The translations under genes and the position numbers were made by a program. The notes under the pieces were generated by a model. That model was not told the DNA's origin and did no database searches. It saw only the letters and a list, made by a program, of their open reading frames with translations. From an uncultured Bacilli bacterium (GTDB lineage Bacteria > Bacillota_I > Bacilli_A > RF39 > UBA660), in NCBI GenBank assembly GCA_947629285.1, contig CANRDA010000001.1, positions 1 to 28,054 on the forward strand: 28,054 nucleotides of DNA, read 5' to 3'. Each line of letters begins with the position of its first letter. The stretch's first letter is position 1. This document shows, piece by piece, positions 4,293-17,386 of the stretch.

Positions 4293-4386
4293 AAAAAAGG
4301 ACTGTCTAAACAGTCTGCTTAGGGTAATCCATAAGGAAAACCTTTATTTTAACTTTCTATGTCATCTTAAATGGTATTAAGACAAC
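4293..4386 (-). ncRNA. tracrRNA: tracrRNA
   Basis: Minus strand reads GUCUUAAUACCAUUUAAGAUGACAUAGA-AAGU-UAAAAU-AAAGGUUUUCCUUAUGGAUUACCCUAAGCAGACUGUUUAGACAGUCC-UUUUUU. It has an anti-repeat to the array repeat, the same GA/AAGU bulge and UAAAAU lower stem as SpCas9 tracrRNA, a nexus-like segment, a terminal hairpin and a U6 tract. The 5' end is approximate. Confidence 0.92.
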
Positions 4387-4389
4387 TTA

Positions 4390-4419
4390 ATTGTATCACG
4401 TAATGAAGGAGGAAGTCAA
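4390..4419 (-). promoter_or_regulatory. tracrRNA promoter, overlapping the cas9 ribosome-binding site
   Basis: Minus strand TTGACT (4419-4414), 18 nt, TACAAT (4395-4390), with TG extension. Confidence 0.65.
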
Positions 4420-4420
4420 G

Positions 4421-7400
4421 ATGTTAGACGAAAAAAATATAATATTGGATTAGATATCGGTACTACTTCAGTTGGTTGGGCAGTAGTAGATCCTGAAACC
4501 TATAAAATTATGAATAAAGCAAATAAACAATTATGGGGTGTTAGACTATTCGATGAAGCCATTACTGCAGAAGGTAGAAGAGGTTTTAGAACAAGCAGGA
4601 AAAGATATGATAGAAGAAGAAAAAGAATTAAATTATTACAAAATGAATTTAGAGATGAAATAAATAAAGTCGATCCTAACTTCTTTAAAAAATTAAAAGA
4701 AAGTTTTTACAATGAATCAGATACAAAGAACAAAACAATTATATTATCAAAAGAAGAAAAAAAGCAAATTAAAGAATATAATAAAAAATATAAAACTATA
4801 TATCATCTTAGAGAAAGACTAATAAATAATCCTGAAAAAGAGGATATAAGACTTGTTTATTTAGCAATACACCACATTATAAAATATAGAGGTAATTTCT
4901 TATATAATAGTGATAGTTTTAACGTTGATAATTTAAATATATCTGAAAAGTTAAATGAAATATTTAATAATATATATTCACTTTGTGATGAATTAGAATT
5001 AAATATAGATATTTTAAATGATAATTTTTATCAAGTATTAGAAAATGCTTTAATTGAAAAGTCTAATACGGATAAAAAAGTACTCATTAAAGCATCATTA
5101 AATGATAATATTTATAAGGACTTTACAAATGAATTTATTAAATTAATATTAGGTAATAAATTTTCAATATCAAAATTATTTAATATTGAACTTGATGAAG
5201 ATATAAATATTAGTTTCAAAAGTTCAGAATACGATGATAATTGCTCTAAACTTGAAAAATCTTTAGGGGATAAAATAGAAGTATTAAACAATTTAAAAGA
5301 ATTATATAATATTTTGTTTTTAAAAAGTTTATTTAAAAATAGTAATAATACTAATATATCTTCATTAATGGTTAAAAGATATAACGAACATGCAAATGAT
5401 TTAAAATTTTTAAAACAATTATTAAAATACGATGATAAATTATATAAAATTTTCTTTAAAGATAATTTGTCAGATAAAAAAGATGAGTTTTGTATTTATA
5501 GAAAATATGTGAATAATGCTTTATCTTATGAGGAATTTAAAAAAGAATTAAATAAAGCCTTAGAAATAATATTTAATTATAATATCGATGAAAACCTTAT
5601 AGATGAATATACAAGTTACTTTAAAGAAAGAATTGATGAAAACTTATTTTTACCTAGGATTACTGATTCAGATAATGGTAAATATCCATATCAATTAAAT
5701 AAAGTTGAGTTAGAAAAAATAATAGAAAATCAAGGAAAATACTATCCTTTCTTAAAACAAACAGTAAAAGATTCAAATAAAGAAGTTTATAAATTAGTTA
5801 AACTTTTAACATTTAAAATACCATATTATATTGGACCATTAAATAATACTACTAATAAAAAAGGTATTGTTAATAAAAACGCATGGGCAGTAAAAAAAGA
5901 TAATAAAATACAAGTAACACCTTATAATTTTGATGAAATAATAGATAAAGAAGCATCTGCAGAATTATTTATTACTAGAATGATTTCACATTGTACTTAT
6001 TTACTTAATGAATATGCACTACCTAGTAATTCGATATTATATTGTAAATATAAAGTGATGAATGAGTTAAAACAGATAAAGGTAATGAATAGAAAAATTC
6101 CAAATTCTTTACAGCACACAATCTTTGATGAGTTATTTTTAAAGACTAATTCATTTATAACTGAAAGAAAATTTATTAATTATTTAAAAGGTACTAATGA
6201 ATATAATATGTATGATAATTTGAATATAGAAGGTTATTCTAGTGATAAAAAGTTTGCTAATAATATGCAATCATATGTAGATTTCTTTGGTGAAGATGGG
6301 ATATTTAAAGATACTGATTATAAAATTAATGATGCTGAAGAAATAATTAGATGGATAACTATTTTTGAGGATAAAGATATCTTAGAGACAAAAGTGCGAA
6401 AAGAATATCCAAAATTAAATGACCGTGCAGTAAAATTAATTCTATCAAAAAGATATACTGGCTGGGGAAATCTATCAGAAAAGTTATTAAATGGTATATA
6501 TTATAAAGATAAAGAATCCAATATAAATAAATCTATAATGGATTTAATGTATGAAACAGAAGATAATTTTATGCAAATAATATTTAAAAAAGAATATGGC
6601 TTTCAAGATAAAATTGATGAGATAAACTTATCTAATGTTAATAATAAACTAGATTATTCTATAGTAGATGCACTTGCAACCTCTCCATCTACCAAAAGAG
6701 CAATTTATCAATCATTAAAAATAGTAAAAGAAATTACTGATTATATGGGATATGACCCAGAAAACATAATGATTGAAATGTCCAGAGGGGAGGATAAAGT
6801 AAAATCAAGAAAAGATACAAAAAAGACTTACTTAAATAAATTATATGATAAATTTAAAAAAGATATAAATGATTATAATAAATTAAAGAAAGAATTAAAC
6901 TCTTTTGATAAAATTGATAGTCAAAAGTTATTCTTATATTTTATCCAAGAGGGGAAAAGTCTATATTCGAGAAAACCACTTAATATAGATAATTTGGAAG
7001 AATATGAAATTGACCACATTATTCCAAGAACACTTATAAAAGATGATTCTATCGAGAATAAAGCACTAGTATTAAGAAGTGAAAATCATGAAAAAGCCGC
7101 AAATTTCGTACTACCTTCTAATTTTAGAACTAGAGATATGATTAATTGGTGGATACATCTTAAAGATTGTAATTTAATTACTAGTAAAAAATTTAACAAT
7201 CTATGTAGAAATTATTATACTGAAAAAGATATAGAAGGTTTCATCAATAGACAGTTAGTTGAAACAAGGCAGATAACTAAACATGTAGCAAGTATTTTAA
7301 ATAATTTTTATAAAGATACTAAAATCGTTTATTTAAACGCTGAGCTATCAAGCAATTATAGAAAGAAATTTGAATTATTTAAATACCGTGATTTAAATGA

Positions 7401-8478
7401 TTATCACCATGCTCATGATGCTTATTTAGCAGCAGTTATAGGTGAATATAAAGAGAAATATTTAAATACAACTACTGATTTTGAAAAATTAAAAGAAATT
7501 ACTAAAAAACTTATTGAAGAAAAAAAATATAATGAATTAAGTTATGGATATGTAATTAATAGTATTAGTAATGATGTAAGTCTTTTTGATGAAGATACAG
7601 GTGAAATTAAATTTGATGCAGATTTATTCAATGAGACAGTAAAAGAAACATTATATAGAAATGATATATTAATTAGTAAAAAAACTGAAATTAAAACTGG
7701 AGAGTTTTATAATCAAACTAAAAGCAAAAAAGGAAATAAAGGAGTTCCTTTAAAAGAAAATCTACCAACGGAATTATATGGTTCATATACAAGTTTAAAT
7801 CCTTCATATTCAGTTTTAGTAAAATATACTAAGAAAAATAAAACTGAACAAAGATTAATTGGCGTTCCTATATATTATAGTATTAAAAATAACAATGATA
7901 ACAATATACTTATTAATTATATTGCGAGTTTGTTACAGATTGATGATAAAAATAGTATTGAAATTATAAAAGATAAAATACCTTTTTATACAATTTTAGA
8001 TTGGGATGGTCAAATTTGTTCTTTAGTAGGTGCGACAGATAAAGTAGAAGTATGTAATGCGAAAGAATTTAAAATTAATAAAGAAAATCAAATAAAATGG
8101 AAATATACTTTAAACAGGCTATTTAATAAAAATATAAATAGTATAGATGATGTTATATATAACAATCAATTAAATGAAGTTGCCAATTATATAATTGAAA
8201 AAATTGAAACTGACTATAAACTATATGAGAATCTTTTACCAGAAATAAAAGAGTTCTTAAGTGATGATGTTTTAAATAATATAACTATTGATACAAAAGA
8301 AAAAACATTACTTGAATTGTTTAAACTATTAAAATTTAATAGTGCAACTGCTAATTTAAAATGCTTAGACAGTAACTTGTCCTTAGCATTCGGAAAAAAG
8401 CACAGTAGAATTATAAGTCATTTCACAATCATTAATAAATCTGTAACTGGATTAAGGGAACATAGAAATGAGTTTTAG
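4421..8478 (+). CDS. cas9: Type II-A Cas9, 1352 aa if repaired; as written it has a 1-nt frameshift in the A7 tract at 4431-4437
   Basis: SD AAGGAGGA (4406-4413) precedes ATG 4421. RuvC-I YNIGLDIGTTSVGWAV starts at 4438, in the frame of the 4510-8478 ORF. Also present: Arg-rich bridge helix RRGFRTSRKRYDRRRKR, RuvC-II IEMSR, HNH EIDHIIP...N...N, RuvC-III HHAHDAYL. Confidence 0.95.
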
Positions 8479-9340
8479 GACTGTTGTTATATCAAAACAA
8501 TCTAGGATAAGTTATAAAAACAGATTTCTAGTAGTTAAACAAGAAAATGATGAAAAATATATTCATTTATCAGAAATAGATACAATTATAGTCGATTCTA
8601 TAGCTGTATCTATTTCCTTATACTTGTTAAAAGAATTATGCGATAATAAAATAAATATAATTTTTTGTGATGAAAAACATAATCCATATGGAGAATTAAT
8701 GTCTCTTTATTCAAGTCATAATTCTAGTAAAAAAATAATATTACAAAGTAAATGGAATAATAAATTAAAAGATGAATTATGGGAAAATATAATAATAAAT
8801 AAAATAACTAATCAAGCCATTTTATTACAAAAAATAAAATCTGATAATTATAATTTATTATTAGAATATGCTAAAGACGTAAAAATAGGGGATAAAACAA
8901 ATAGAGAAGGACATGCTGCAAAAGTATACTTTAATTCATTATTTACTAAAAAGTTTGTAAGAAATGAAAATGATGATATAAATTCGGCACTAAATTATGG
9001 ATATGCAGTATTACTTTCTACATTTAATAAAGAAATAGTAAATAATGGTTACAAAACAGAACTTGGAATACATCATAAAAATGAATTTAATCCATTTAAT
9101 TTAACTTGTGATTTAATGGAACCTTTTAGGATAGTTATTGATAGTTTTGTGTATTATAATCAAACAAGAGAGTTTAATAGTGAATATAAGATGGATTTGG
9201 TAAATATATTTAATGCTAAATACGACTATTTAGGTAAAAAATATACATTAAAAGATATAATAAAATTATATGTAAAAAATATATTTGATTTTATAGAAAA
9301 TAATAAAGAGTATAAAGGATTTAGTATTTATGAGGGATAG
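8468..9340 (+). CDS. cas1: CRISPR-associated endonuclease Cas1 (type II)
   Basis: MSFRTVVISK, NREGHAAKVYF, NSALNYGYAVL, GIHHKNEFNPFNLTCDLMEPFR. Confidence 0.96.
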   Translation: MSFRTVVISKQSRISYKNRFLVVKQENDEKYIHLSEIDTIIVDSIAVSISLYLLKELCDNKINIIFCDEKHNPYGELMSLYSSHNSSKKIILQSKWNNKLKDELWENIIINKITNQAILLQKIKSDNYNLLLEYAKDVKIGDKTNREGHAAKVYFNSLFTKKFVRNENDDINSALNYGYAVLLSTFNKEIVNNGYKTELGIHHKNEFNPFNLTCDLMEPFRIVIDSFVYYNQTREFNSEYKMDLVNIFNAKYDYLGKKYTLKDIIKLYVKNIFDFIENNKEYKGFSIYEG

Positions 9341-9650
9341 AGCAATGAGGACAATAGTGTTTTTTGATTTACCTAATGTTTATGCAAAAGATAGAAGAAA
9401 TTATAATTTATTTAAAAAATTTCTAACAAATGAAGGATTTTTAATGTTACAAGAATCAGTTTATTCTAAAATTGTATTAAATTCAGTTCAATCCAATTTG
9501 TTGATTGAACGAGTAAAAAAGAACGCACCAAAAAAAGGTATTATTCAATTGATGACAATAACAGAAAAACAATATTCCCAAATAATTTATGTAATAGGGG
9601 AGTCCAACACTAAAATAATAGATAGTGAAGATAGGTTAGTGGTATTATGA
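9330..9650 (+). CDS. cas2: CRISPR-associated Cas2
   Basis: MRTIVFFDLP...FLMLQESVYSK...MTITEKQY; follows cas1. Confidence 0.95.
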   Translation: MRDRAMRTIVFFDLPNVYAKDRRNYNLFKKFLTNEGFLMLQESVYSKIVLNSVQSNLLIERVKKNAPKKGIIQLMTITEKQYSQIIYVIGESNTKIIDSEDRLVVL

Positions 9651-10324
9651 AATTTAATTTTAGTTATCTCGATAATGATGTGCTTATTGATAATAATAAA
9701 ATACTATCGATTGAAGTAGAAAATAAAAATTACTTTTATAGAATTGTCAATGACTTAAATACAATTTATAACGGAAATATTAGTGATGACTTAACGATTT
9801 ATGATAATGAAAATAATGAAATAGATTTAACTAATAAGATAAGTGTTATGATTGATTATTTTAATATAGATTTTAACTCGAAAAAATTAATTAATACTCT
9901 TTCTAAATCTATAATTGAAAATATAGATATTGAAGATTTAAATAAAATCAAAATTAATTATAAAAAAATAAAAAATATTATTTCTAAATCATTAAATGAA
10001 TATGATTTTTCAATATCATTCAGTGATGAATTAGAAATGGAAAATCTTTTTAAAATATTAAAAATTAGTATTAATAAAAAGGATTCATTAATAGATAATT
10101 TATTTCTTATTATTGATTTAGAAAATAAATTTAAATTAAATAAGTTATTAGTTTTTATAAATTTAAAACAATACTTGTCTAAAGAAGAATTAATTGAATT
10201 CTATAAATATTGTATATATAATAATGTTATGATTATTTTAGTAGATTCACAAACATATGGAACAACTATAAAATATGAAAAAAAGTTAATAATAGATAGT
10301 AATTTAGATGAATATTTGTTATAA
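9647..10324 (+). CDS. csn2: Type II-A CRISPR-associated Csn2
   Basis: 225 aa after cas2; KLLVFINLKQYLSKEEL and C-terminal IIDSNLDEY resemble Csn2. Confidence 0.88.
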   Translation: MKFNFSYLDNDVLIDNNKILSIEVENKNYFYRIVNDLNTIYNGNISDDLTIYDNENNEIDLTNKISVMIDYFNIDFNSKKLINTLSKSIIENIDIEDLNKIKINYKKIKNIISKSLNEYDFSISFSDELEMENLFKILKISINKKDSLIDNLFLIIDLENKFKLNKLLVFINLKQYLSKEELIEFYKYCIYNNVMIILVDSQTYGTTIKYEKKLIIDSNLDEYLL

Positions 10325-10415: not shown

Positions 10416-11045
10416 GTTTTAGATCTATGTTATTTTAAATGGTATTAAAACAAGTTAATACGACTATACTTTCACTGATAGGTTTTAGATCTATGTTATT
10501 TTAAATGGTATTAAAACATAGTTGTACTTATAAAGAGATGCCTACTAGTTTTAGATCTATGTTATTTTAAATGGTATTAAAACCTGCCATCATCAGGCGT
10601 ATCTCCATGTTCAGTTTTAGATCTATGTTATTTTAAATGGTATTAAAACTGTTACATCCAACTGTAGAGGCGTTATTAAGTTTTAGATCTATGTTATTTT
10701 AAATGGTATTAAAACAATTATAAAAAAGGCATCTAAATGGATAGTGTTTTAGATCTATGTTATTTTAAATGGTATTAAAACTTATCTAAATTAGTAGGTG
10801 TTAGTCCACTAGTTTTAGATCTATGTTATTTTAAATGGTATTAAAACTTGTAACAGCAGTGTAAACAGTTAATCCCAGTTTTAGATCTATGTTATTTTAA
10901 ATGGTATTAAAACTTTCACATCGGCACTACCCTCTAATATACAGTTTTAGATCTATGTTATTTTAAATGGTATTAAAACTTAAATAATGTTAATAACGAA
11001 TTATCGGCAGTTTTAGATCTATATTATTTTAAAAGGAAGATTGAT
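10416..11045 (+). CRISPR. CRISPR array: 9 identical 36-nt repeats GTTTTAGATCTATGTTATTTTAAATGGTATTAAAAC plus a degenerate terminal repeat; 9 spacers of 30 nt
   Basis: Repeats start at 10416, 10482, 10548, 10614, 10680, 10746, 10812, 10878, 10944 (66-nt period). The terminal repeat at 11010 is GTTTTAGATCTATATTATTTTAAAAGGAAGATTGAT. Confidence 0.99.
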
Positions 11046-11167
11046 AAAATGTTAATGTTTATTATAATCATATTGGCAATATGGTGTGGCTTTTGTGACT
11101 TTGCTAACAAAAGAAAATAAATTTAATTAATATTAAATTAAAATGCATACAATTAACTGGTGATACT

Positions 11168-11917
11168 ATGTCAGGTAATATGTATGCTTTTTTACTTTCT
11201 ACTATTGCTGGAATATCTACCCTAATAGGTTTTCTATTCATATATATTAAAAAGGATAGAGATAGTATGATTAGTAAAGCACTAGGTTTTGCAAGTGGAG
11301 TTATGCTTACAATATCAGTAATTGATTTAATACCTAGTTCGTTTTTATTAATGATTAAAAATAATTCAAATATTTATACATTATTATTTATTATAATAGG
11401 ATTTTTAATAGGTGTTATCATATCTAGTGTAATTGATAAAAGAGTAGGGGAACAATCTAAAAAAGGTACTAAATTATATAAACTTGGACTAATTACAATG
11501 TTAGTTATAATGATGCATAATATTCCTGAGGGAATTGCAACATTTATAACAACTACAAATAACATAAAATTAGGTTTAATACTAACAATCGCAATCGCAC
11601 TTCATAATATCCCAGAAGGAATATCTATAAGTATACCAATATATTATTCAACTAATAGCAAATTTAAAGCATTTTTATATACATTTATATCAGGAATGTC
11701 TGAGCCACTTGGAGCATTAATTTCATATCTATTTCTTGCTAGATTTGTAAATGATACTATATTAGGTATTATATACTCAATAATCGCTGGAATGATGATT
11801 AATATATCAATAAATGAATTATATAAAGAAGCAACACATTATAATAGAAAAAATACTGTTATTTATTTTATAATTGGTTCTTTTATTATGATATTAAATC
11901 ATATATTATTTGGATAG
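11168..11917 (+). CDS. zupT: ZIP family divalent metal transporter (ZupT-like)
   Basis: Multi-TM protein with MMHNIPEG and ALHNIPEG motifs and GMSEPLGA. Confidence 0.85.
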   Translation: MSGNMYAFLLSTIAGISTLIGFLFIYIKKDRDSMISKALGFASGVMLTISVIDLIPSSFLLMIKNNSNIYTLLFIIIGFLIGVIISSVIDKRVGEQSKKGTKLYKLGLITMLVIMMHNIPEGIATFITTTNNIKLGLILTIAIALHNIPEGISISIPIYYSTNSKFKAFLYTFISGMSEPLGALISYLFLARFVNDTILGIIYSIIAGMMINISINELYKEATHYNRKNTVIYFIIGSFIMILNHILFG

Positions 11918-11918
11918 T

Positions 11919-11946
11919 AAAAAGAGACATTAAATAGTCTCTTTTA
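11919..11946. terminator. Bidirectional intrinsic terminator
   Basis: AAAAGAGAC-attaaata-GTCTCTTTT between convergent ORFs. Confidence 0.75.
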
Positions 11947-11952
11947 AGTGGG

Positions 11953-12078
11953 TTATTTACAATCTATATCAGAATTTGATTTAGAATTGTTTGATTTAGA
12001 ACTAGAAGATTGAGCGTTAGTACTTTTATTCATACTATTGCTTTTATTCATATTAGTTTCCTTATTATTCTTTCTCAT
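11953..12078 (-). CDS. 41-aa Asn/Ser/Lys-rich small protein (below the ORF-track cutoff)
   Basis: MRKNNKETNMNKSNSMNKSTNAQSSSSKSNNSKSNSDIDCK*; SD GGTGA upstream; stop next to the bidirectional terminator. Confidence 0.6.
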   Translation of the reverse strand: MRKNNKETNMNKSNSMNKSTNAQSSSSKSNNSKSNSDIDCK

Positions 12079-12278
12079 TTAAATCACCCAATAATATTAT
12101 TTACTGATAAATTAAATATATACGTAATTTTTTATATTAAAGAAATAAATGATAGAGTATGAATATAAATTTATATTTTGAAACATAGGTTGAACATAGA
12201 GAAGAATATATAATTTAAATAAATATAATATGAGCAATTAGTAGTATTAAATACATATCTACTTTTATTCCATCGAGA

Positions 12279-12307
12279 AGTTAACATAATTGAAACTTGA
12301 CGGAAGA
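12279..12307 (-). other. Left attachment site: dif-like, 7-bp spacer
   Basis: Minus strand TCTTCCGTCAA-GTTTCAA-TTATGTTAACT. Confidence 0.85.
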
Positions 12308-12309
12308 CT

Positions 12310-12525
12310 TTATATAATTCTTTTTTTATTATTTGTATTTCCAACTATATAATCTATGCTTGTTTCATAAAAATTTGATAATGTTATTAATAAATCTATA
12401 GGAATTGTTCTCTTTCCTGTTTCATATAATCCATATTGTTGTCTCGTTATTTTTAAAATGTTTGCAATATTTTCTTGCTTTAAGTCTTTATCTTCTCTTA
12501 AATCTCTTAATCTTTTAAAATACAT
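12310..12525 (-). CDS. XRE-family HTH prophage repressor (71 aa)
   Basis: MYFKRLRDLREDKDLKQENIANILKITRQQYGLYETGKRTIPIDLLITLSNFYETSIDYIVG; SD AGGAAGTG before ATG 12525 (the track start at 12582 is probably too long); divergent from the phage operon. Confidence 0.9.
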   Translation of the reverse strand: MYFKRLRDLREDKDLKQENIANILKITRQQYGLYETGKRTIPIDLLITLSNFYETSIDYIVGNTNNKKRII

Positions 12526-12571
12526 TTTTTCACTTCCTAATATAATTTTATATGAATTTATTTGAATTCTC

Positions 12572-12629
12572 TTGACAAGCATTCATTTAAATGCTAAAAT
12601 GTATATAGTGAAGCATTCATTTGAATGTT
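12572..12629 (+). promoter_or_regulatory. Phage rightward promoter with two putative repressor operators
   Basis: TTGACA (12572)-17 nt-TAAAAT (12595). Near-identical quasi-palindromes AAGCATTCATTTAAATGCT (12577-12595) and AAGCATTCATTTGAATGTT (12611-12629). Confidence 0.75.
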
Positions 12630-12641
12630 TCACGTGAAACA
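12626..12641. promoter_or_regulatory. parS: parS site (ParB/Spo0J binding consensus)
   Basis: TGTTTCACGTGAAACA, a perfect 16-bp palindrome matching the bacterial parS consensus TGTTNCACGTGAAACA. Confidence 0.85.
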
Positions 12642-12736
12642 TCTGTTTCAACCTTATGCAAGGTAGTTAATTCCTAGCAACTAACTATCTTGCACCTACT
12701 CATTTTTATGAGTAGAATTGAAAGGAGAGTAGGAAA

Positions 12737-12940
12737 ATGAATAAAAATGTTATTAAAAAGATTTTAAAAGAATTAAGAAAGAATAATGAAATTACTATTA
12801 GTTATTGCCCTAGTTTAGAAGAATGTGACTATTTGTATAATCAAGGTGTTAATGTTATTATGGTGAATTCAATTAGATATTGTATTTTAGATAATAAATA
12901 TTCTTACTTAGTTAATTCTTATAAATATGTAAAGGAGTAG
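12737..12940 (+). CDS. Prophage hypothetical protein (67 aa)
   Basis: SD AAGGAG; first gene after the promoter; no recognised motif. Confidence 0.7.
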   Translation: MNKNVIKKILKELRKNNEITISYCPSLEECDYLYNQGVNVIMVNSIRYCILDNKYSYLVNSYKYVKE

Positions 12941-12945
12941 GTATT

Positions 12946-13038
12946 ATGGAAGAAAAAAATAAAAGGTTATATAAGATAATGTTTATTGTATGTATGGTTA
13001 CGAGTTTATTAATTATATTAATGCCTTTATTATTTTAG
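12946..13038 (+). CDS. 30-aa single-TM peptide
   Basis: MEEKNKRLYKIMFIVCMVTSLLIILMPLLF*; SD AAGGAG 8 nt upstream. An overlapping 58-aa ORF (12990-13166) may be its frameshifted continuation. Confidence 0.55.
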   Translation: MEEKNKRLYKIMFIVCMVTSLLIILMPLLF

Positions 13039-13073
13039 TTTTAGTTCTATGTCTTTATAAATGGTATTATTGG
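13038..13073 (+). repeat. Solitary CRISPR-repeat-like unit inside the prophage
   Basis: GTTTTAGTTCTATGTCTTTATAAATGGTATTATTGG versus the host repeat: 28/32 identical over the first 32 nt, 28/36 overall. Confidence 0.85.
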
Positions 13074-13155
13074 AAGAAAAAATATAAAAATGCTAGGTAT
13101 ATTATAAGAATATATGAAATTAAATTATATGATTTACAGAAGGGAAGATTTAAAA

Positions 13156-13443
13156 ATGGAAAATAAAATGGAAATATTTATTACAAATTTAGATAAAAGA
13201 AATATAACAAATGAAAAGACTGGTGAGATTTCAAACTGGTGTATGGTTACTTATTTCATTAAGAAAGAAGACACTGACAGGTCAAAAGGTAATGCACAGT
13301 TGAGTTGCTATTGTAAAGCAAATGCTTTCAATGATTTAGAAAAATATATGTATAAGTGGTCAAATGCTAATATTACTCAAACTGTTGAGGGTAATCGTAT
13401 TAAATTAAAGATAAAAAGTGTAGATAATGTTGTGGTTTCTTAA
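13156..13443 (+). CDS. Probable ssDNA-binding protein (pV-like), 95 aa
   Basis: Size, beta-rich sequence, NEKTGEISNW hairpin-like motif and position before the coat genes. Start at 13156 preferred over 13114. Function inferred. Confidence 0.6.
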   Translation: MENKMEIFITNLDKRNITNEKTGEISNWCMVTYFIKKEDTDRSKGNAQLSCYCKANAFNDLEKYMYKWSNANITQTVEGNRIKLKIKSVDNVVVS

Positions 13444-13639
13444 CGAATATATAATTGATAATAAATTATATTTTAAGATAGTGAAATGTCCATTTGGATA
13501 TTCTGACAATTACTACTTAGTTAATACTTATGTATTATCTAAGAATAGATTTATTGAATATAGGAATTATATAAACTCTATAAAAATTCCTGAAAAAACT
13601 ATGTTTAAAAAATTGCTAGGGTTTTTTAATAAATTATAA
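13427..13639 (+). CDS. Prophage hypothetical protein (70 aa)
   Basis: Overlaps the SSB stop; no recognised motif. Confidence 0.55.
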   Translation: MLWFLNEYIIDNKLYFKIVKCPFGYSDNYYLVNTYVLSKNRFIEYRNYINSIKIPEKTMFKKLLGFFNKL

Positions 13640-13657
13640 TTGAAAGGAGAGTGTATC

Positions 13658-13825
13658 ATGCAAGCAGTTATTAGTGCGTTAACTGAAAGTGTAACGTCAA
13701 CTGTAATGTTCGGAACTCTAGCAGAGATAGTGCCATTTATTGTAACACTATTACCATTTAGTTTAGGTTTATATTTCTTACGTAAACTTGTTAAAGGTGC
13801 CGGAACAGGTAAAGTTAGATTTTAA
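13658..13825 (+). CDS. Major coat protein (pVIII-like), 55 aa
   Basis: MQAVISALTESVTSTVMFGTLAEIVPFIVTLLPFSLGLYFLRKLVKGAGTGKVRF: amphipathic N-terminus, one TM, basic C-terminus; SD AAGGAG at 13644. Confidence 0.8.
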   Translation: MQAVISALTESVTSTVMFGTLAEIVPFIVTLLPFSLGLYFLRKLVKGAGTGKVRF

Positions 13826-13873
13826 TAATTGGAGCATCTTGCTCCTTTTATTATATTAGAAAGGATAGATTTT

Positions 13874-13987
13874 ATGTTTGATATTTCAATGGAATTTATG
13901 AAAGATTTAGTAGATTTAATAGTCCCAGTAATGGCTATATATATTGTATTTGATTTATGTGGAAGTTTATTATTTGGAAAGAAGTGA
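13874..13987 (+). CDS. Minor coat protein (pVII/pIX-like), 37 aa
   Basis: MFDISMEFMKDLVDLIVPVMAIYIVFDLCGSLLFGKK*; SD AAGGA; below the ORF-track cutoff. Confidence 0.65.
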   Translation: MFDISMEFMKDLVDLIVPVMAIYIVFDLCGSLLFGKK

Positions 13988-13991
13988 TTTT

Positions 13992-14336
13992 GTGATTTAT
14001 GTACCTAATTTAGAAAATTATAAATGTGTTGTAGTTCAAGATAAAGATACTATAAGAGCATATCATACAAGACCTTATAATCCAAGTTATAATAACTCAA
14101 TTCAAGTACAGTATACTGATTTTTATGTCAATTCAAATTATATGTCAAAAGAGGGTTCTCAAAATTTTAATTATAATAGTAGTTTGCCAAACTGTATAAG
14201 TCAAGATAATTTAACAAATGAGGTTTATTATAGGAATGATTTTGATAGAATACTTATTATATTTATAATATTTGCTATTTTTTGCATTTTAATACCTTTA
14301 AAAGTATTTATGAGATTGTTTAGGAGGTTTAACTAG
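13992..14336 (+). CDS. Virion/membrane protein with C-terminal TM (114 aa)
   Basis: GTG start at 13992 in the frame of the track ORF 13944-14336, avoiding overlap with the 37-aa gene; C-terminal ILIIFIIFAIFCILIPLKVFMRLFRR. Confidence 0.65.
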   Translation: MIYVPNLENYKCVVVQDKDTIRAYHTRPYNPSYNNSIQVQYTDFYVNSNYMSKEGSQNFNYNSSLPNCISQDNLTNEVYYRNDFDRILIIFIIFAIFCILIPLKVFMRLFRRFN

Positions 14337-14337
14337 T

Positions 14338-15840
14338 ATGAAAATTTTAAAAAGAATAATAGTAGGTGTAGCTATAGGTACTATATTAATGCTTATTAAA
14401 TCATCTAATGTTTTTGCTTATGATGCTGAAACATATTACATTAAATTTGAAAATGTTGAGAATTATGTCTTGGAGCATATTCCTAATAATGATAAATGGA
14501 AAGATTTTGATTTAAACAATTATCCTTATGTATTAGTTGAATTAGTTAATGGCAGTAATAATAATAAAGGAATTATGGTTTTCTTTTTTAAATCTTTAGA
14601 CCAATTTAATTCTTTATATATTGAAAAAAATCAATATGGTATTTCTATTAAATCTGGTACTGATTATTGTGGCTACACTTATTATTCTATTAAAGATAGT
14701 TACTATCAAGATTTAGGTTGCAAAGGCGGTTCTGGTGGTTATATTTCTACTTATTTTAGTACTAATTATAATTACAAAGATGCAATTATTACTAATTTTG
14801 ACATCTCAAAATTGACTATAAATAATACTTCTGATGGTGCTCATACAGTTGAAGAGGTAAATCTATTAATGAATAAGATGGACTTTTCTGCTTATTTAAA
14901 TCCAATATATTATTATATTTATTCTTATGATAAAGATTTCAAATTAGTTGATAGTAAAAAATGTACTGATAAGGAGAATTACTGTAATTTACAATCTTAT
15001 AAAGATAATGTTAAATATGTTAAAGTTTCTTATTATTTAGATAAAATTATTGGTAATAATTTAGATATTATAAGTGGACATACTTATGATTTTAATACTA
15101 GTTTTATTAATTCTTATGACGATGTAACTGTTTATGATGCATCTGCTTATTATTTTTATAATGATGATGCTATTAATGTAGATTATGCTTATTTGCTCAC
15201 ACCTAAACAATCTCATAGTTCAGTTGATGAAAAATTTGATTATAAGTTTCAAATTCCCATATCATATGACTATGATAGTGCTAAATTATACCGTTTAGAT
15301 GTTACTTATGAATTTAACGAGTATGTACCAACTGAGATTGTTATACCTCCAACTGTTAGTTATTCAGATATTACAATTGGTGGTGGAGATGTAGACCCAC
15401 CTGTTGACCCTGAACCTGAACCTGAAGACCCTAACAAAGAGATTAATGATAAATTAAATGGTGTTAATGATAAACTTGACGATTTAAATAGTAGTATTAC
15501 TGATAGTAATGTTGATACAGGTAGTGCTGGTGGTTTCTTTAATGATTTTGAAGATAAAGATTTTGGATTATCCGATATAGTTAAAGCCCCTTTAGGTGTA
15601 ATAAATTCAATAACAACTGGTTCTTGTGAAGATATAGAGGTTAGTTTACCTTTTGTTAATAAAAAAATTACAATTCCTTGTATGATGCCTATTTATCAAA
15701 AACATTTTATGCCAGTTTTAGTTATTTATCAAACTATTACGGGTGGTTTAATTTCTTATTGGATATGTGTGCAATTATTGGAAATGGTAAAGGGATTTAA
15801 AGACCCTGACAAAGACGAAATACAGGTGGTGGACGTATGA
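14338..15840 (+). CDS. Adsorption protein (pIII-like), 500 aa
   Basis: Signal peptide (…SSNVFA), Tyr/Asn-rich receptor-binding region, Pro/acidic linker GGGDVDPPVDPEPEPEDP, coiled segment, C-terminal hydrophobic anchor; largest gene, followed by a pVI-like gene. Confidence 0.8.
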   Translation: MKILKRIIVGVAIGTILMLIKSSNVFAYDAETYYIKFENVENYVLEHIPNNDKWKDFDLNNYPYVLVELVNGSNNNKGIMVFFFKSLDQFNSLYIEKNQYGISIKSGTDYCGYTYYSIKDSYYQDLGCKGGSGGYISTYFSTNYNYKDAIITNFDISKLTINNTSDGAHTVEEVNLLMNKMDFSAYLNPIYYYIYSYDKDFKLVDSKKCTDKENYCNLQSYKDNVKYVKVSYYLDKIIGNNLDIISGHTYDFNTSFINSYDDVTVYDASAYYFYNDDAINVDYAYLLTPKQSHSSVDEKFDYKFQIPISYDYDSAKLYRLDVTYEFNEYVPTEIVIPPTVSYSDITIGGGDVDPPVDPEPEPEDPNKEINDKLNGVNDKLDDLNSSITDSNVDTGSAGGFFNDFEDKDFGLSDIVKAPLGVINSITTGSCEDIEVSLPFVNKKITIPCMMPIYQKHFMPVLVIYQTITGGLISYWICVQLLEMVKGFKDPDKDEIQVVDV

Positions 15841-16136
15841 TTAATGCTATAATTCAAGGAATTTTCTCTTTAATAATGGGCTTGGTAGATATTGTATTAA
15901 AACCTATTGATTTATTAATTGAGAGTGTTCTTCCTGACGTATCTCAAGGTTTATCTTTTGTAGGTCAATTATTTAATATAATAAGTCAAGGCTTATCGTG
16001 GGCTGTAAATGCTAGTGGCTTGCATAGTGGTGTACTTTCATTTTTAGTATTATTTATGACATTTAAATTAACAGTACCAGTTACTGTTAGTGCGATTAAA
16101 AAAGCGATTAAATGGTATAATGCTTTGAAGATTTAG
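15837..16136 (+). CDS. Minor coat protein (pVI-like), 99 aa
   Basis: Hydrophobic, about 100 aa, ATGA-coupled to pIII and upstream of pI. Confidence 0.75.
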   Translation: MINAIIQGIFSLIMGLVDIVLKPIDLLIESVLPDVSQGLSFVGQLFNIISQGLSWAVNASGLHSGVLSFLVLFMTFKLTVPVTVSAIKKAIKWYNALKI

Positions 16137-16187
16137 TTTTCGTGAGTGCTATATATATAGCACCACGAAAACGAAAGGAGAATTTAT

Positions 16188-16253
16188 ATGGAAATAGATT
16201 TTGAATTTTGGGACGATTTAGATTTAGAAAAGGACGTTGAAAAATGTTATTGA
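16188..16253 (+). CDS. 21-aa acidic micro-ORF
   Basis: MEIDFEFWDDLDLEKDVEKCY*; SD AAGGAG 7 nt upstream; overlaps the pI start by 10 nt. Confidence 0.45.
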   Translation: MEIDFEFWDDLDLEKDVEKCY

Positions 16254-16891
16254 TTTTTATAATTATAGGTATAGTATTCTTTTTTTGGAGATTTAGAAAA
16301 ACAAAAATAAAATGGAAAACCTTTTTTAAAAAAGGTTTTGCACCTGTACGTGGTAGATTTGGTATTTATTGCTACTGTGGTAAGCAGGGTAGTGGGAAGA
16401 CTTATAGTGCAGTAGAATTTTTATTACATAATACTGATTTGCCAATATATAGTAATGTATCTACTATTAAGGGTATAGATTATACATATTTTAGTGGTTT
16501 TGACGAATTATTAAAATTAAAGGATAAGACTGATTGTATTATCTTTTATGACGAAATATTTACTGCACTTACTCGTTCTAGTAGAATGAATACAGACGTT
16601 TTAGATTTTCTATCTCAAATGAGAAAGAGACGTATTATATTTATTACTACTGCTCAAGAGTGGTTAGAGATTAATATGACATTAAGGAGATACTGTAGAT
16701 TTCAAATAGAATGTAATATGCGTAATATATTCGGATTAGGTATATTAATTAAGCATTGTTATGATGCTGAGCAATTAAAATGGTCTCAAGAAGATAACGA
16801 GTATATAGCACCTCTAATATCGACAACTATCTCAAAATGTAATTTATATGTAGCAAATAGTTATGATACATTCGAGCAAATAAAAACTTAA
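16244..16891 (+). CDS. Zot/pI-like morphogenesis ATPase with N-terminal TM
   Basis: N-terminal TM, Walker A GKQGSGKT, Walker B CIIFYDE, LSQMRKRR, TTAQ; the inovirus hallmark gene. Confidence 0.92.
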   Translation: MLLIFIIIGIVFFFWRFRKTKIKWKTFFKKGFAPVRGRFGIYCYCGKQGSGKTYSAVEFLLHNTDLPIYSNVSTIKGIDYTYFSGFDELLKLKDKTDCIIFYDEIFTALTRSSRMNTDVLDFLSQMRKRRIIFITTAQEWLEINMTLRRYCRFQIECNMRNIFGLGILIKHCYDAEQLKWSQEDNEYIAPLISTTISKCNLYVANSYDTFEQIKT

Positions 16892-17386
16892 TTTTTTTGC
16901 CATACTTTTTTAAATAACTAAAAAAAAGTATGTACTATACTATGAGAGTATTTTCGATTAATTTTGCTTTAGCAAAATTAATTGAAAATACTTAATCCGC
17001 GAGGGTTAGAACTCTAATGAACGCGATTTTCAGTACCATATATAATGCTTATGTTATCAGTTTTTAATAAAAAATAAAATTTAAACTTGTTTAAATTATA
17101 TTTTTTAGCAACAGTAGAAAGGGTTCACGCGTGGGGCTAACTTAAAATCGCGTTGGAATTTAATTAGAATTAACAAAGTGTAAAATAATTTTTTCTATTG
17201 GGTTTCACCCAATAAAAAAAATTATTCCACAGGTTCTTAGGGTGTAACCCTAAGTAGGTCGTAGGACAAAGTCCTACATACGATAAACAAGTATAGTAAT
17301 GGGTGCGTTTTAGCACGGTAATTGCACACTACGACTAATGCAATTACTGTGTCAAGTGTCAAATATAGAAAAGGAGTAGGTAAAAT
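16892..17386 (+). other. Phage intergenic region: hairpins, probable packaging signal and single-strand origin, and double-strand origin
   Basis: Hairpins at 16901-16932, 16948-16991, about 17184-17226, 17236-17254, 17261-17277 and 17318-17347. The last has ACTACGAC in its loop. Confidence 0.75.

Follow-up and report, generated by a model that had tools for sequence, protein, structure and literature searches.

In this study, we analysed the type II-A CRISPR-Cas locus of an uncultured Bacilli bacterium. The window, i.e. the whole stretch of DNA that was analysed, is the complete 28-kb contig C1 (28,054 nt) of the metagenome-assembled genome (MAG) GCA_947629285.1. This MAG, designated G000, comprises 874 kb in 86 contigs, is 62% complete, and has a GC content of 26%. 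We found that its cas9 gene carries a real, heritable one-base deletion in a run of adenines close to the start codon. The deletion is lineage-specific and derived from an ancestral run of eight (A8 to A7). We also found that this genome contains an integrated filamentous prophage to which a spacer of the array in the same locus corresponds. These results indicate that the gene is probably a true loss-of-function allele of cas9, and not a switch, a programmed frameshift, or an artefact.

The start region of cas9 was read directly from the sequence. A Shine-Dalgarno (SD) sequence, GGAGG, is located at 4408-4412 on the plus strand, followed by an ATG at 4421-4423, and the intact genes of conspecific strains begin in the same frame. 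In C1, the codons of this frame are ATG TTA GAC GAA AAA AAT ATA ATA TTG GAT TAG. They form a dead-end open reading frame (ORF) of ten codons (4421..4453, plus strand), MLDEKNIILD by direct translation, with the stop at 4451-4453. The body of Cas9 (4438..8478, plus strand) lies in the -1 frame, which is uninterrupted from 4381 to 8478 and is translated as ...KKYNIGLDIGTTSVGWAV. The codon of the RuvC-I aspartate in this frame is GAT at 4453-4455, and the translation also contains the RuvC-II (IEMSRG), HNH (DHIIP), and RuvC-III (HHAHDAY) motifs. The read-through protein from YNIGLD on matched the Cas9 equivalog model TIGR01865 from end to end (model positions 1-1070, E 1e-233), and the Pfam domains Cas9_REC, HNH_4, Cas9_RuvC, Cas9-BH, and Cas9_PI were all detected. 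The ATG at 4421 is +1 relative to this body, and no start codon of the C1 gene is in frame with RuvC-I. A start-codon scan of the Cas9 frame upstream of 4510 found no ATG, GTG, or TTG; for this reason, the listed ORF of 1322 amino acids (aa), which begins at ATG 4510, does not contain the RuvC-I motif. Two other starts were considered and rejected. The sole near-start codon upstream in the Cas9 frame, ATT at 4390, has no SD sequence, and a functional truncated Cas9 from ATG 4510 would come from a codon that is not preceded by an SD sequence and would lack RuvC-I.

The deletion site is the A7 tract at 4431-4437 (plus strand), where the in-frame state is A8. Of long A runs, the intact gene contains just two A8 and three A7, and the lesion falls in one of the two A8 runs, where slippage during replication is to be expected. 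The remaining long A runs of the C1 gene, namely A8 at 7520-7527 and A7 at 4757, 5892, and 7678, are unbroken. A preliminary description of this DNA had stated that the frame of ATG 4421 ends after MLDEKNIILD with Cas9 in the -1 frame, that an A8 tract would yield an intact Cas9 of 1352 aa, and that any lesion is recent, as the other A runs of cas9, the repeats, the trans-activating CRISPR RNA (tracrRNA), and the adaptation genes are intact. Our reading of the sequence confirmed the frames, the A8 strain described below encodes 1352 aa from the same ATG, and the remaining parts of the locus were all found as described.

We next turn to the state of the tract in other assemblies. The protein cluster of the truncated Cas9 has three other members, whose contigs gave two conspecific strains, L016 and L017. 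L016 (ENA ERZ27249283) is 98.1% identical to C1 at the DNA level, has A8, and encodes an intact Cas9 of 1352 aa. L017 (ERZ27060145) is 97.2% identical to C1, also has A8, and is in frame at the tract. The C1 cas9 body showed 98.4% aa identity to the intact Cas9 P0122. By exact look-up of the 170-aa protein encoded directly upstream of cas9, four more contigs (L018-L021) were found in the assemblies ERZ27249041, -180, -512, and -158, with a coverage of 1.7-2.8x. A7 was read in all four, and their identity to C1 was 99.7-99.97% with zero indels over 1.8-3.5 kb each. Across six contigs, 117 comparisons of A/T runs of at least 6 nt were made, and the sole length difference was in the cas9 tract, where it was split by lineage. 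Start-region scans of JGI metagenomes and GTDB genomes gave no further conspecific contigs, and when the 228-aa upstream protein and the L017 170-aa protein were looked up by exact match, only contigs that were already known came back. At a few sites, L019 (C1 positions 4710 and 4719) and L020 (C1 position 5260) carry alleles of the A8 strains inside the A7 clone, which could be due to recombination between strains or to a mixed-strain consensus at 2x coverage.

A homopolymer is a place where an error of sequencing or assembly might hide a true A8, and a MAG of 62% completeness with supporting contigs of only 2-3x coverage adds to this concern. However, A7 was observed in five independent assemblies without indels among them, and the 116 other homopolymer comparisons showed no length difference at all. 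A8 was resolved in L016, whose accession number falls in the same range as those of the A7 assemblies; sequencing therefore resolves A8 when it is present. The recurrence of the lesion in independent assemblies of metagenomes shows that it is no artefact. A random homopolymer error at this tract is very unlikely, and an artefact of any kind is scarcely credible. The suggestion of a homopolymer sequencing error, which had been one of four options in the preliminary description, is effectively refuted.

Replication slippage from A8 to A7, at a tract that is one of the two longest homopolymers in cas9, is the most likely origin of the deletion. As a result of the deletion, the whole of Cas9, the RuvC-I aspartate included, is no longer in frame with the start codon. 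The A7 lineage would then make no full-length Cas9, or traces at most by ribosomal or polymerase slippage. Interference would be lost, and the uptake of new spacers would be lost too, since type II-A uptake needs Cas9. Judged from the reading frames, A7 is predicted to abolish Cas9 function, and it would represent a null or strongly hypomorphic allele fixed in a clonal lineage that is represented by at least five assemblies.

The rest of the locus is preserved. The genes cas1 (8468-9340; TIGR03639), cas2 (9330-9650; TIGR01573), and csn2 (9647-10324; TIGR01866) are all open on the plus strand and match their NCBIfam models. The locus is classified as type II-A by its gene content, because the Cas9 equivalog match is followed by cas1, cas2, and csn2. 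The CRISPR array (10416..11045, plus strand) has nine perfect 36-nt repeats, a degenerate terminal tenth, and nine spacers of 30 nt. The tracrRNA (4293..4383, minus strand) was located by its repeat-like anti-repeat match, a promoter and terminator scan, and its folds. Its anti-repeat stretch, 4356-4391, resembles the CRISPR repeats; its promoter is TTGACT-18-TACAAT at 4419-4390, and its terminator stem, 4315-4300, is followed by a T run (minus strand). The A7 lineage (C1 and L018-L021) lacks 5 nt at 4315/4316 that are present in both A8 strains. After the A7 tract, this is the second change in the CRISPR locus that is specific to the A7 lineage. It sits in the stretch that links the two 3' hairpins, both of which still fold. 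The cas9 lesion is young, since it is accompanied by intact catalytic motifs, cas1, cas2, and csn2 genes, tracrRNA hairpins, and array.

The nine spacers were then compared with the whole MAG by BLAST. Spacer S2, the second from the leader (10518-10547, plus strand), is self-targeting: it matched C85:2244-2273(-), on another contig of G000, at 29/30 positions near the 3' end of a zot-like gene. The match has no repeat flanks and lies inside an ORF. Among the genes of C85 are ordinary chromosomal ones, namely rnc, cdsA, and those for an RseP-type protease and an ABC transporter. At one end of the contig, a G2P-type rolling-circle Rep, a Zot-like assembly ATPase, and a 456-aa ORF are encoded in a compact module, all on the same strand. 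The zot-like gene adjoins the Rep gene and has Zot matches in both Pfam and PHROGs. We designated this inovirus-like prophage, which has many small ORFs, as phi2 (C85, also L024, 1092-7080); it lies in the 3' end of tRNA-Glu(UUC). The same ABC transporter is flanked by a complete tRNA-Glu(UUC) in the sister species G015, whereas C85 keeps the last ~25 nt of the tRNA gene, abutting phage DNA, which indicates that phi2 is integrated. No integrase gene was noticed on C85, and the other junction is beyond the contig end. A direct and inverted repeat search in C85 found no attachment (att) repeats, a comparison of the att regions of dif prophages with C85 gave noise only, and the small ORFs of phi2 had no PHROG matches. 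The placement of the S2 target in the same chromosome relies on MAG binning of C1 and C85 together. This binning is supported by G015, which is a nearest relative for the housekeeping proteins of both contigs with an aa identity of 91-94%.

Copies of phi2 (98.9% identical) were found in four other assemblies (L041-L044: ERZ27249032, -276, -512, and -041), two of which also hold the A7 strain at matching coverage. The sample of the intact A8 strain contains a 92%-identical Zot relative with five differences from S2, and S2 was therefore taken from phi2 or a near twin. The single mismatch in the C85 protospacer is a synonymous G>A at the 11th base from the end proximal to the protospacer adjacent motif (PAM), which is spacer position 20. 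The protospacers in L041-L044 add a G>T at the 8th base from this end (spacer position 23), which changes ATG to ATT (Met>Ile). These changes look like escape from a once-active Cas9, and the Met>Ile change in the phage assembly ATPase is possibly a CRISPR-escape mutation. The 3' flank of the C85 protospacer is AAGATTT. IMG/VR contained no exact match to the 20 nt nearest the PAM in S2, S3, or S8, and a BLAST search of the whole array against INPHARED phages returned repeat-to-repeat matches only. With an active Cas9, S2 would be expected to be lethal to its host.

We considered whether the A7 allele may still be used, either as one state of a switch or as a source of a little Cas9. If A7 and A8 toggle by slipped-strand mispairing, subpopulations would have Cas9 ON or OFF, and immunity would be phase-variable. 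The homopolymer directly follows the start codon, A7 and A8 both occur in the species, and everything downstream is intact, so that a +1 slip would restore function; low ON fractions are compatible with the data. However, the tract follows the lineage, with A7 in five of five assemblies of one clone and A8 in both of the strains that are 2-3% diverged. Because tract length tracks phylogeny exactly, one mutational event suffices. No toggling, i.e. ON and OFF tract lengths within one clone, was seen at the assembly level in the five assemblies of the A7 clone. The tract is also ordinary, as the 874-kb genome contains 292 A8/T8 and 26 A9/T9 runs, and the genome encodes both MutS and MutL in uninterrupted frames. 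Relatives carry A5, A6, or A8 at this position; tract length is thus not conserved, and the A run simply results from the Lys-Lys(-Asn) codons ahead of YNIGLD. All 119 of the full-length homologues retrieved have RuvC-I in frame with their start. The plausible contingency tracts of G000 are of another kind, being poly-G/C runs of 9-11 nt beside TTGACA and upstream of pilin-like genes. Phase variation, which the preliminary description had listed as an ON/OFF option, thus gained no positive support, given an ordinary tract, mismatch repair, and no toggling within the lineage, and we regard it as improbable. More specifically, the A7/A8 tract of cas9, at codons 4-6, might be a reversible switch whose OFF state admits or keeps filamentous prophages and whose ON state is regained by a +1 slip. 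This is very improbable; if true, the tract would be a contingency locus controlling adaptive immunity in a small-genome gut bacterium. The poly-G/C tracts mentioned above are located directly after TTGACA at C4:2054-2064, C57:2241-2250, C18:13844-13853, and C61:4902-4910 of G000. In three of the four (C4, C18, and C61), a gene starting with MKKGFTLIELL..., a type IV pilin- or pseudopilin-like N-terminus, begins ~40-50 nt downstream. These tracts are candidates for phase variation via the promoter spacer.

The A7 allele could alternatively yield a low level of functional Cas9, and so a deliberately weak immunity, by -1 ribosomal frameshifting or by transcriptional slippage. A slippery heptamer of the X_XXY_YYZ pattern, A_AAA_AAT, is present in the zero frame at 4432-4438, and a -1 slip on it would give MLDEKNYNIGLD... 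with RuvC-I in frame. Comparable A-rich heptamers in insertion sequence (IS) elements give roughly 1% frameshifting or less. No stimulatory structure was found downstream of the heptamer: the 82 nt at 4439-4520 fold at -9.6 kcal/mol, which is worse than the shuffle mean of -12.6 (z +1.15). The SD sequence lies ~20 nt upstream, a distance that differs from the dnaX-type spacing, and the two-frame layout is not conserved, the gene being in frame at this point in the A8 conspecifics as well as in 119/119 homologues. Efficient transcriptional slippage needs runs of about 9 or more, and A7 is shorter than this. The option in the preliminary description of -1 frameshifting or slippage is favoured by the slippery heptamer alone; the stimulatory structure, the conservation, and the length of the run speak against it. 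Cas9 may leak from the A7 allele at or below about one percent, but immunity that is maintained in this way is highly improbable.

A second broken cas9 occurs within the species. The L017 gene, in frame at the tract, has two nonsense codons, TAT>TAA at codon 128 (Tyr) and TGG>TAG at codon 911 (Trp), at L017:2383-2385 and 4732-4734. Since two of the three sampled lineages carry an independently broken cas9, its loss may recur in the species. The branch dN/dS (ratio of nonsynonymous to synonymous substitution rates) of cas9 was 0.14 for C1, 0.13 for L017, and 0.03 for the intact L016. Nonsynonymous and synonymous changes were 21:33 on the C1 branch against 2:16 on the L016 branch (Fisher p = 0.04). 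These ratios weakly hint at relaxed constraint on part of the C1 and L017 branches. Broken cas9 was also seen outside the species. A homologue that begins at the same internal Met, P0217, was considered as a second case of the tract and rejected; it is the cas9 of another species, broken at a different site that is not a homopolymer. On a Logan contig (L045:755-1800), the cas9 of another species, with a 73%-identical N-terminus, is in several pieces, and its first break is just after DIGT and not in a homopolymer.

We then asked why cas9 was lost. An active Cas9 with S2 would be autoimmune or would block lysogeny, and the loss of cas9 would accordingly be tolerated or favoured. We consider this conflict with phi2 to be the selective context of the loss with about the same confidence as drift combined with phage escape mutations. 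The preliminary description had proposed a recent inactivation that favours prophage carriage; the match of S2 to the integrated phi2 lends this option direct support, with the causal link between lesion and prophage a matter of conjecture. It is also possible, though unlikely, that the loss is real and unrelated to phi2. In that case, the phage would be tolerated through protospacer mutations or a non-functional PAM, and cas9 would have been lost from a slippage-prone tract by neutral decay or because of its cost. Every sampled phi2 copy is mismatched at spacer position 20, four of the five also have the nonsynonymous change at position 23, within the PAM-proximal 8-12 nt, and L017 lost cas9 through other mutations. 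On the other hand, Cas9 usually tolerates a single mismatch 11 nt from the PAM, and the C85 copy has just this one. S2 is leader-proximal and hence recent, as is the lesion.

Several points weigh against a loss of cas9 that is driven by phi2, or against the firmness of the loss itself. With one protospacer mismatch in C85 and two in the four other samples, phage escape alone could explain the coexistence of S2 and phi2. Type II self-targeting spacers mostly lack a consensus PAM (PMC7708048), which also favours an unrelated loss. Among 400 family genomes, no protospacer other than that in C85 itself was found, so no PAM was derived. The contigs of L016 and L017 are too short to reveal which spacers and prophages the A8 strains carry. 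The nonsense codons of L017 come from a 2.4x assembly, in which errors are possible. The samples appear to stem from one study and may be from non-independent hosts. Finally, A7 in five of five assemblies excludes just an ON fraction above ~45% at the 5% level, and a minority of A8 is compatible with it.

A second inovirus-like prophage resides in C1 itself, 1.2 kb from the CRISPR array. Its nominal bounds are 12275..18144 (plus strand), and it was recognised by Pfam and PHROGs matches. Its genes include a 500-aa ORF and those for a Zot-like ATPase (16244-16891), a Rep (17387-17935), and, on the minus strand, a helix-turn-helix regulator (12310-12582). None of the nine spacers matched this resident prophage in the BLAST search of the genome. 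A similar arrangement, a Zot-bearing element near a type II-A array, was observed in G028, from another genus of the same family, where a Zot homologue with 56% identity (C15:4923-5561) lies ~5 kb from a type II-A array (10775-12449).

Taken together, the A7 cas9 gene would represent an ordinary and already predicted exit from CRISPR autoimmunity, and it reveals no new mechanism. It provides a clean natural example in which a one-base lesion is predicted to silence a CRISPR-Cas9 locus that is perfect in other respects, in a genome whose array includes a self-targeting spacer. It also demonstrates that, even without reads, the frameshift of a cas gene in a MAG can be verified through exact searches for the neighbouring proteins in other assemblies. 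The intact A8 allele with S2 and the phi2 protospacers with one or two mismatches form a testable pair, which bears on how type II-A immunity coexists with chronic filamentous phages in Gram-positive gut bacteria.

Programmed -1 frameshifting on A-rich heptamers is known from dnaX and from IS1/IS911. The cas9 gene shares with these the X_XXY_YYZ heptamer (A_AAA_AAT) in the zero frame. It differs in that no stimulatory structure lies downstream, the layout is not conserved, and relatives encode Cas9 in one frame. As in homopolymer contingency loci such as the poly-G tracts of Campylobacter jejuni (PMC8437040), a mononucleotide run in the 5' end of the ORF sets the frame. Unlike those loci, the cas9 run is short (7-8 A), ordinary, and not conserved, mismatch repair is present, and no ON/OFF mixture was seen within the clone. 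Recurrent truncated Cas9 alleles, both nonsense and frameshift, have been reported in Mycoplasma gallisepticum after a host jump (PMC11893278). That case likewise involves several independent lineage-specific alleles in an AT-rich species with a small genome. It was followed in dated isolates with complete genomes, whereas our data are three strain lineages from metagenomes, with a self-targeting spacer as a candidate cause.

When an integrated inovirus was self-targeted in the tested model, Pseudomonas Pf1 with type I-F CRISPR-Cas, the outcome was lethal (Roux et al. 2019, PMC6813254), and 45 natural self-targeted inovirus cases were predicted to have a dead or inhibited CRISPR-Cas (PMC6813254). 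Like those inoviruses, phi2 is a prophage of ~6-7 kb with a Zot-like ATPase and a rolling-circle Rep that is matched by a spacer of its host. In contrast to them, phi2 has as its host a Bacilli MAG of low GC content and small genome size, the system is of type II-A, and the inactivating cas9 frameshift is directly visible. Self-targeting spacers mostly lie near the leader, and the inactivation of cas genes is an accepted way of escaping them (Nobrega et al. 2020, PMC7708048). This escape also appears in Wimmer & Beisel 2020 (PMC6990116) and in Stern et al. 2010 as cited in PMC11893278. The locus resembles these cases in having a leader-proximal spacer against its own prophage and a small lesion in the effector gene with the rest of the locus intact. 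It differs from them in that lethality is presumed here from the spacer match, and in that a slip of one base, at codon 5-6, makes up the lesion. Lesions of this type are missed by large surveys, which are by their own account blind to small changes in cas genes (PMC7708048).

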